A DNA stretch of 7,722 nt from a virus (taxonomy: Monodnaviria > Loebvirae > Hofneiviricota > Faserviricetes > Tubulavirales > Inoviridae): IMG/VR virus record IMGVR_UViG_2541047896_000002; one strand, 5' to 3'. The translations under genes were made by a program, and so were the position numbers. Below are positions 873 to 1,988 of the stretch, piece by piece; the stretch's first letter is position 1, and each line of letters opens with the position of its first letter. Under the pieces are notes generated by a model, which was not told the origin of the DNA, ran no database searches, and saw nothing but the letters and a program-made list of their open reading frames with translations.

Positions 873-1988
873 ATGTTCTTCGACTGGTTAAGTATTGAAC
901 AGGATTTCGGCTTTCAACTTCCTATTCTCTCGGATGTTGCTTACCAGCGTATTCATCTTGAAAGTGGTGAGGCTAGTGCGCTTTCTCAGCCAACTTTTCA
1001 GCACCGGGGATCTTTCTGTGATGTCGTTTCTATCTCTATCCGTGGATCTGTTCTAAAAATGACGGGCAACCCCTCGCGGTGGGGGCGGCTTGATAATTTA
1101 TTTGGCTTACCTACTGTTGATGCTTGCGTTATGGTTTTCAATAAGATCCTTCTTGATCTTAAATTGCCTGTTTTCACAAAATGCACTCGATTAATGCCCG
1201 GTCAGTCTAAAGAAACCGAAAAAGCCCATATGGTAACTGATGGGGCGTTAATTAAAGAGCTTCATATAACATCTAATAAATCTGTTGGCAAAGGGAATGA
1301 GGATGATTATATTTCAGGGCTTTCGACTCAACCCTATAGGAATAGTGTCCCACGGTTGCATTCAAACGGTAAATCTGTTGACTGGTTGTCTAAAAAAGGG
1401 AATGTTAATCTTATTTATCCGACTGTATATAATAAGTCACATGAGATTGAGTTACATAGTTTATTAAAAATAAAAAATAAATTCTCTGAGCAGTCAAAAG
1501 AGTTTAATTATATTGTTAGTGTGATTGATTATTGTAAGGAAAATGGAATAGTCAGATTTGAACAAAAATTGAAGTCTCGTTTTATTCAAAAGCACTCTCT
1601 AGGTTTTTGGGGGTTATCTGATTATTCTGTCTTAAATAAGTTACATTCTGATTTTCTGGCTCTTGATGAAAAGTTATCGGTGAATGCTATGGATTTTGAA
1701 ACTATTAGTGAACATCTTATTACCCGTGGAATAGTTGAAACTACACGGGCAGCTAATACTACAGCTATGTATGCGATCCAATGGTTTCATGGTCATATTT
1801 TTGATTTAAGTAAAAATCAAGTGCGTATTCATCGAGCAAGACTCCGCAAGATTGGTATTGACATTGCGCAAAAATGTAATGTTTCGAAATTCTCTCCTGT
1901 TGTTGTCAAGCAAACGCGAGAGATTAAAGTTTCTGATTGTGTTATTCCATCGTGGTATGTAAAACCGTCTCATTTACGAGTTGCATAG
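873..1988 (+). CDS. Rolling-circle replication initiation protein (pII-like)
   Basis: 371-aa ORF, first in the operon. The segment GIVRFEQKLKSRFIQKHSLGFWGL resembles the GLVRFEARIK...FGLP region I recall from Ff gene II proteins. Size and position match pII/RstA-type initiators. Confidence 0.75.
   Translation: MFFDWLSIEQDFGFQLPILSDVAYQRIHLESGEASALSQPTFQHRGSFCDVVSISIRGSVLKMTGNPSRWGRLDNLFGLPTVDACVMVFNKILLDLKLPVFTKCTRLMPGQSKETEKAHMVTDGALIKELHITSNKSVGKGNEDDYISGLSTQPYRNSVPRLHSNGKSVDWLSKKGNVNLIYPTVYNKSHEIELHSLLKIKNKFSEQSKEFNYIVSVIDYCKENGIVRFEQKLKSRFIQKHSLGFWGLSDYSVLNKLHSDFLALDEKLSVNAMDFETISEHLITRGIVETTRAANTTAMYAIQWFHGHIFDLSKNQVRIHRARLRKIGIDIAQKCNVSKFSPVVVKQTREIKVSDCVIPSWYVKPSHLRVA

Follow-up and report, generated by a model that had tools for sequence, protein, structure and literature searches.

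Gene X is part of the replication control of the Ff phages, in a regulatory circuit in which the gene V protein is the partner of pII and pX. For f1, the expression and function of gene X were reportedly demonstrated by Yen & Webster (1982) and Fulford & Model (1988), both cited in PMC5405960, and the latter study is said to have found that pX brakes pII-driven synthesis and is needed for single strands to accumulate. M13 pX is 111 aa long and starts at Met300 of gene II; an earlier sequence-only reading of the locus described here had invoked this Ff precedent. The M13 record notes that pX arises from an internal start in gene II, that its translation is controlled by the gene V protein and that it regulates DNA replication. 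A nested gene X with a ribosome-binding site is also annotated in the Lineavirus phages IKe, I2-2 and PEar (PMC7697814; IKe record).

The locus described here belongs to a less-studied branch, the rep lineage that includes gene II of UPphi901, YpfPhi, CUS-1 and If1, with UPphi and YpfPhi linked to it through If1 and through matches to E. coli prophages. In the literature found on the If1/Ypf/UPphi rep lineage, gene X is mentioned only once, as a passing remark that places it within gene II of UPphi901 and gives neither coordinates nor evidence (PMC7307601). A review of YpfPhi lists YPO2274 and YPO2275 as the only genes of the replication module (PMC4266046). Gene X is likewise unannotated in the If1 RefSeq record, in the E. 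coli G5 RefSeq annotation and in nine related phage records. The analysis below indicates that translation probably also starts inside the If1/Ypf-type rep gene, at ATG 1689, and would yield a 99-aa homologue of the gene X protein.

The prophage and its replication module

The window, i.e., the whole stretch of DNA analysed here (7722 bases), is an integrated E. coli filamentous phage (inovirus), and the tandemly duplicated prophage of E. coli G5 and NCTC9040 is 97% identical to it across 7.5 kb. In G5, the tandem-repeat prophage adjoins two site-specific integrase genes. Matches to the G5 and NCTC9040 copies stop at position 7548, and the last ~175 bases of the window (7549–7722), which do not align with either, may represent a different junction or flank. 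Positions 2–12 (and 1–35) resemble a dif-like or phage-attachment junction; no complete 28-nt dif was present in the window with up to three mismatches allowed.

The gene order is inovirus-like: rep (873–1988) is followed by a gene for a 96-aa protein (2005–2295), by small and coat-like ORFs, and further downstream by a 627-aa ORF and the genes of a DUF2523 protein, a Zot/pI-like protein and a secretin. The mechanically assigned start of the 627-aa, gene III-like ORF is GTG 2907, which has no Shine-Dalgarno (SD) sequence (window 2907–2930), and in E. coli G5 its RefSeq homologue begins 7 codons later, which corresponds to the ATG at 2928.

The features of the replication module are the following:

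873–1988, plus strand: rep gene (gene II homologue, If1/Ypf type), 371 aa
873–1673, plus strand: N-terminal catalytic (Rep_trans-like) domain, residues 1–267
1674–1688, plus strand: inter-domain linker, codons 268–272 (LSVNA), carrying the SD and spacer of the putative nested start
1677–1703, plus strand: core of suppressed synonymous variation, codons 269–277, centred on ATG 1689
1679–1683, plus strand: SD-like GGTGA, 5 nt before the ATG, −7.6 kcal/mol
1689–1691, plus strand: proposed internal initiation codon (Met273), in frame, invariant in 116/116 full-length relatives
1689–1988, plus strand: nested ORF; its predicted 99-aa, pX-like product comprises the entire C-terminal G2P_X_C domain of Rep
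2005–2295, plus strand: gene V homologue (ssDNA-binding protein), 96 aa, 89% identical to the annotated If1 ss-DNA binding protein

Rep comprises two Pfam domains, an N-terminal Phage_CRI domain followed by G2P_X_C (PF05155) at residues 282–366, and its N-terminal part has the Phage_CRI/Rep_trans-like fold expected of an inovirus rolling-circle initiator. The protein is 82% identical to an If1 region labelled 'ORF320' plus 'minor intergenic region', and since the gene V homologue is 89% identical to its If1 counterpart as well, the replication module is of the If1 type and not of the Ff type. Pairwise similarity to the pII proteins of Ff and IKe is almost absent: BLASTP aligned only a 19-residue segment with IKe pII, and the C-terminal parts of M13 pII and Rep matched with an E value of 0.022.

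In the If1 record (NC_001954), the rep homologue spans 7316–8429 and is matched by tblastn in two pieces, 7316–7465 and 7440–8429. The record describes this region as 'ORF320; homologous to R-pyocin' plus 'minor intergenic region' and names neither gene II nor gene X there. The reference If1 record probably contains a frameshift or a sequencing error in the replication gene. Upstream of rep, a 64-nt segment of the window (486–549) is 87% identical to the If1 major intergenic region (5046–5112) and is a candidate origin or packaging-signal element; non-coding DNA elsewhere in the window did not match the If1 intergenic region.

Start signals, domain boundary and the predicted product

The sequence-only reading had pointed to an in-frame ATG at 1689 preceded by GGTGA at 5-nt spacing and to a C-terminal product of about 99 aa, and each of these statements was borne out. 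The ATG is codon 273 of 873–1988, as (1689 − 873)/3 = 272; GGTGA occupies 1679–1683 and the spacer 1684–1688; and 1689–1988 comprises 99 codons plus TAG, with an agreeing translation (MDFETISEHLITRGIVETTRAANTTAMYAIQWFHG...). The predicted nested product would carry the N-terminal peptide (f)MDFETISEHLITR and have a mass of ~11 kDa.

SDs were scored by duplex energy, using GAUCACCUCCUUA of the 16S 3′ end as the anti-SD. GGTGA is fully complementary to UCACC there and gives −7.6 kcal/mol, the best value among the 13 in-frame ATG, GTG and TTG codons of rep. The real starts of genes in the window mostly score −4.4 to −9.5 kcal/mol, a range that includes this value. An equally good upstream SD occurs at 6.7% of all rep positions, and with six internal ATGs the probability of a chance coincidence in a single sequence is roughly 1 in 3. 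An ATG with an SD is therefore not unusual in one sequence, and the signal can rise above chance only through related sequences. Predicted mRNA accessibility at ATG 1689 was uninformative, since it lies at the 35th percentile in the window and is mixed in relatives.

The proposed start coincides with a domain boundary. PF05155 matches residues 10–94 of the 99 aa (model positions 1–86 of 88, E value 1.3e-25). In the AlphaFold model of Rep (pLDDT 85.6), residues 269–272, directly before Met273, form the only low-confidence stretch (pLDDT < 50) between the two domains, and the 99-aa fragment alone is also predicted to fold (pLDDT 84.2). Neither sequence searches nor Foldseek found a relative of the C-terminal domain among solved structures, and thus the fold gives no hint of a mechanism.

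A linker predicted to be flexible would also suit proteolysis, and a C-terminal fragment could alternatively be produced from another start, either Met299 (at 1767), which is nearly invariant, or GTG 1680. The energies do not favour these codons: Met299 lacks an SD (window value −2.3 kcal/mol, enterobacterial median −1.5) and lies inside a predicted helix of the domain, and GTG 1680 scores −2.4 kcal/mol. We regard an origin of the fragment by any of these routes as extremely unlikely compared with initiation at ATG 1689.

The arrangement proposed for ATG 1689 resembles gene X of M13, f1 and fd, where the in-frame internal start likewise lies within the replication gene, between the Phage_CRI and C-terminal domains, is preceded by an SD, yields the C-terminal PF05155 domain and is followed immediately by gene V. 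There are also differences. The start is separated from Pfam position 1 by 9 residues, as opposed to 19 in M13 and IKe, and is thus about 10 residues closer; accordingly, M13 pX and IKe pX match PF05155 from their own residue 20–21, and the window product from residue 10. The M13 gene X SD, GAGGGGGA, is stronger than GGTGA (−11.3 versus −7.6 kcal/mol), whereas that of IKe gene X is weak (−3.8 kcal/mol), so an accepted gene X can evidently have a modest SD. In a weak profile alignment (probability 16%), the IKe gene X methionine (Met301) aligns 7 query residues before Met273. The IKe rep gene belongs to a different lineage from that of the window, and in the annotation of the IKe record promoter signals precede gene X. 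Ff phages have a dedicated gene X promoter inside gene II, whereas a crude scan of the window found none near 1689, and a separate promoter is probably not essential to gene X. Unlike the Ff phages, the window phage is an integrated prophage.

Stand-alone homologues of gene X were sought in a database search with the 99 aa and rejected as candidates, as only short or partial proteins were recovered. Proteins beginning exactly at MDFETIS lie at contig ends, beside full rep genes or cut from them, and are not independent genes. Three such gene calls of 100–101 aa (L044, 109–411; L045, 196–501; L046, 191–496) lie within about 200 nt of contig ends and represent truncated rep called from the internal Met, because circular phage genomes were cut inside rep.

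The start codon and its Shine-Dalgarno sequence across clades

We compared rep genes with available DNA, taken from viral contigs, genomes and phage records, and Rep proteins from a large protein database. Met273 is invariant among the full-length cluster representatives, which share 60–89% identity (116/116), and an ATG occupies the Met273 column (column 0) in 33 of the 37 relatives with DNA, down to 35% identity. GGTGA is kept in 15/16 enterobacterial relatives, with the clade form TCG GTG A; the Pseudomonas-like clade mostly has (A/C/G)AGGTGA, written in the codons AAG, CAG, GAG or TCG followed by GTG A.

As a control, in-frame ATG columns were listed for each clade if at least 80% of its sequences conserve them, and all were scored for an SD of −5 kcal/mol or better:

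Enterobacterial clade: conserved ATG with such an SD at column 0, 94% of sequences
Aeromonas-like clade: conserved ATG with such an SD at column 0, 75% of sequences
Pseudomonas-like clade: conserved ATG with such an SD at column 0, 76% of sequences
Oral-metagenome clade: conserved ATG with such an SD at column −9, 97% of sequences
All other conserved Met columns: such an SD in 0–19% of sequences

In each of these four clades, no conserved in-frame ATG other than that at the domain boundary has a consistent SD. When six clades were scanned in 10-codon windows, the window from −9 to 0 was the unique gene-wide maximum for an ATG with an SD, containing one in 5/6 clades at −5.5 kcal/mol and in 6/6 at −3 kcal/mol, while any other 10-codon window contained one in at most three clades. 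In the oral-metagenome clade, column 0 holds V, I, Y or M, and all 31 unique sequences have an ATG at column −9, preceded by CAAGAGGA, CAGAAGGA or CATCAAGGA, an SD that is maintained through amino-acid changes. The Vibrio clade has Thr at column 0 and, 8 codons before it, an ATG that follows GGAG. The Vibrio and Alteromonas clades were also widened; this added close relatives only and little independent information. Across clades, the putative start signals at the domain boundary are thus conserved or replaced nearby. The joint movement of the ATG and its SD along the linker argues that selection acts on making the C-terminal domain as a separate protein, and the comparison suggests that this trait of the replication module has been selected and is probably old.

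The same conservation could, however, reflect the protein alone, with no internal initiation at all: Met273 would be kept as the first hydrophobic residue of the C-terminal domain, and GGTGA would result from the conserved Ser-Val-Asn codons in the linker. At the protein level the LSV(N/T)A motif is indeed conserved, which by itself preserves part of the SD. This explanation also fits the non-significant coincidence of ATG and SD in a single sequence and the relatives in which the SD is weak or absent, such as those with GGTAA (L021 and L022), AGC GTA (L032) or CAGGTA (Alteromonas phiAFP1). It does not account for the G that completes the SD before GTG, which is retained between the enterobacterial and Pseudomonas-like clades despite changes from Ser to Lys, Gln or Glu, nor for the other conserved methionines, which lack an SD. 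The oral clade argues against it as well, tolerating V, I and Y at column 0 and yet gaining an ATG with an SD at −9 in 31/31 sequences. Synonymous sites, described below, bear on this explanation from both sides.

Nucleotide-level constraint and the proposed role

Observed over expected synonymous differences were calculated in 9-codon windows for a set of 20 non-identical enterobacterial and Aeromonas-like genes. The gene-wide minimum fell on codons 269–277, with a ratio of 0.19 for the enterobacterial genes and 0.34 when the Aeromonas-like genes were added, and the next lowest windows overlap these codons. No permutation of the columns was as low as these ratios, and with 9-codon windows P was ≤ 0.002 for each of the three sequence sets, for pairwise counts that are not phylogenetically independent. 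In the enterobacterial and Aeromonas-like genes, TTT GAA ACT after the ATG shows almost no nucleotide variation. The dip at the start was not reproduced in the oral clade, which had no significant minimum anywhere (P 0.68), or in the Pseudomonas-like clade, where the minimum lay at column −56. Because two clades fail and pairwise counts ignore phylogeny, the synonymous signal is supportive and not decisive; it supports nucleotide-level constraint on the presumed start signals in the closest relatives.

For an explanation by protein conservation without initiation, the missing dip in two clades is a point in favour, and the constraint on synonymous sites on both sides of the ATG is a point against; taken with the codon changes and the relocated start of the oral clade, it appears unlikely, and initiation at ATG 1689 remains our preferred reading.

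Constraint at 1677–1703 could also stem from another cis-element, such as a promoter of a downstream gene, a replication enhancer, a nick site or a gene V operator, to which the ATG would be incidental. Promoters do occur inside gene II in Ff and IKe, and synonymous variation is reduced up to about codon −18, beyond the needs of a ribosome-binding site. A crude consensus scan found no sigma-70-like promoter close upstream of 1689, and the counts were not above those in shuffled sequence; RNAalifold found no consensus RNA structure from −60 to +45 (0 pairs). The If1 intergenic-region homologue at 486–549 is a likelier home for origin signals, and an incidental ATG would leave the joint movement of ATG and SD in other clades unexplained. 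We therefore consider such an element very unlikely as the source of the constraint. Given that no promoter was found near 1689, the small protein, if made, would most simply be translated from the rep mRNA.

The flanking reduction itself covers window 1635–1676 (codons −18 to −5), where the observed/expected ratio is moderately lowered, to about 0.55–0.7. The cause may be a promoter within the gene or an operator acting on translation; neither was detected. No Rfam family was matched anywhere in the window. An overlapping ORF was rejected, as no alternative frame around the site is open across relatives, and these do not retain the out-of-frame ATG at 1684.

The gene X-like interpretation of the sequence-only reading is thus supported by several lines: the identity of the domain, the position of the start in the linker, the invariance of the Met, the uniqueness of the SD, the relocation of the start and, in the closest clades, the synonymous minimum. 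Such a nested gene X is very probably present, as could be expected in this less-studied branch; it is not a new kind of thing. According to the model we propose, rep encodes a two-domain rolling-circle initiator, and ribosomes would additionally initiate at the in-frame ATG 1689, guided by the GGTGA 5 nt upstream. The product would correspond to the C-terminal G2P_X_C domain of Rep and would be a homologue of the gene X protein of M13, f1 and IKe.

We hold a replication-regulating role of the 99-aa protein with less confidence than its translation. By analogy with f1, a protein that lacks the nicking domain and keeps the partner of the C-terminal domain (Rep itself, origin DNA or a host factor) could compete for that partner and restrain Rep-driven double-strand replication. 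This would tune the switch from the replicative form to single strands, allowing single strands to accumulate for packaging, and the gene V homologue (2005–2295) might act jointly with the 99-aa protein in the switch.

A nested gene X would leave the understanding of the replication system unchanged. In practice, filamentous prophages of enterobacterial genomes could be annotated better, and M273L combined with a synonymous SD knockout offers a concrete mutant for studying the balance between prophage replication and virion production.

A broader conjecture, which we consider distinctly doubtful, is that a nested pX is ancestral and near-universal in inovirus rep genes with a G2P_X_C domain, its start having moved within the linker, and that the prophage product serves as a decoy in trans. 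If so, the decoy from a dif-integrating prophage of the If1/Ypf/UPphi type would poison the Rep of incoming related phages and would be one contributor to the partial protection from superinfection that has been reported for YpfPhi (PMC4266046).

Synonymous variation in the enterobacterial genes shows a second dip, in the last codons of rep (about 1965–1985; observed/expected ratio 0.04 in 5-codon windows). It lies upstream of the gene V start at 2005 and may mark the gene V initiation region or a regulatory target, and this position fits a method that detects initiation regions.
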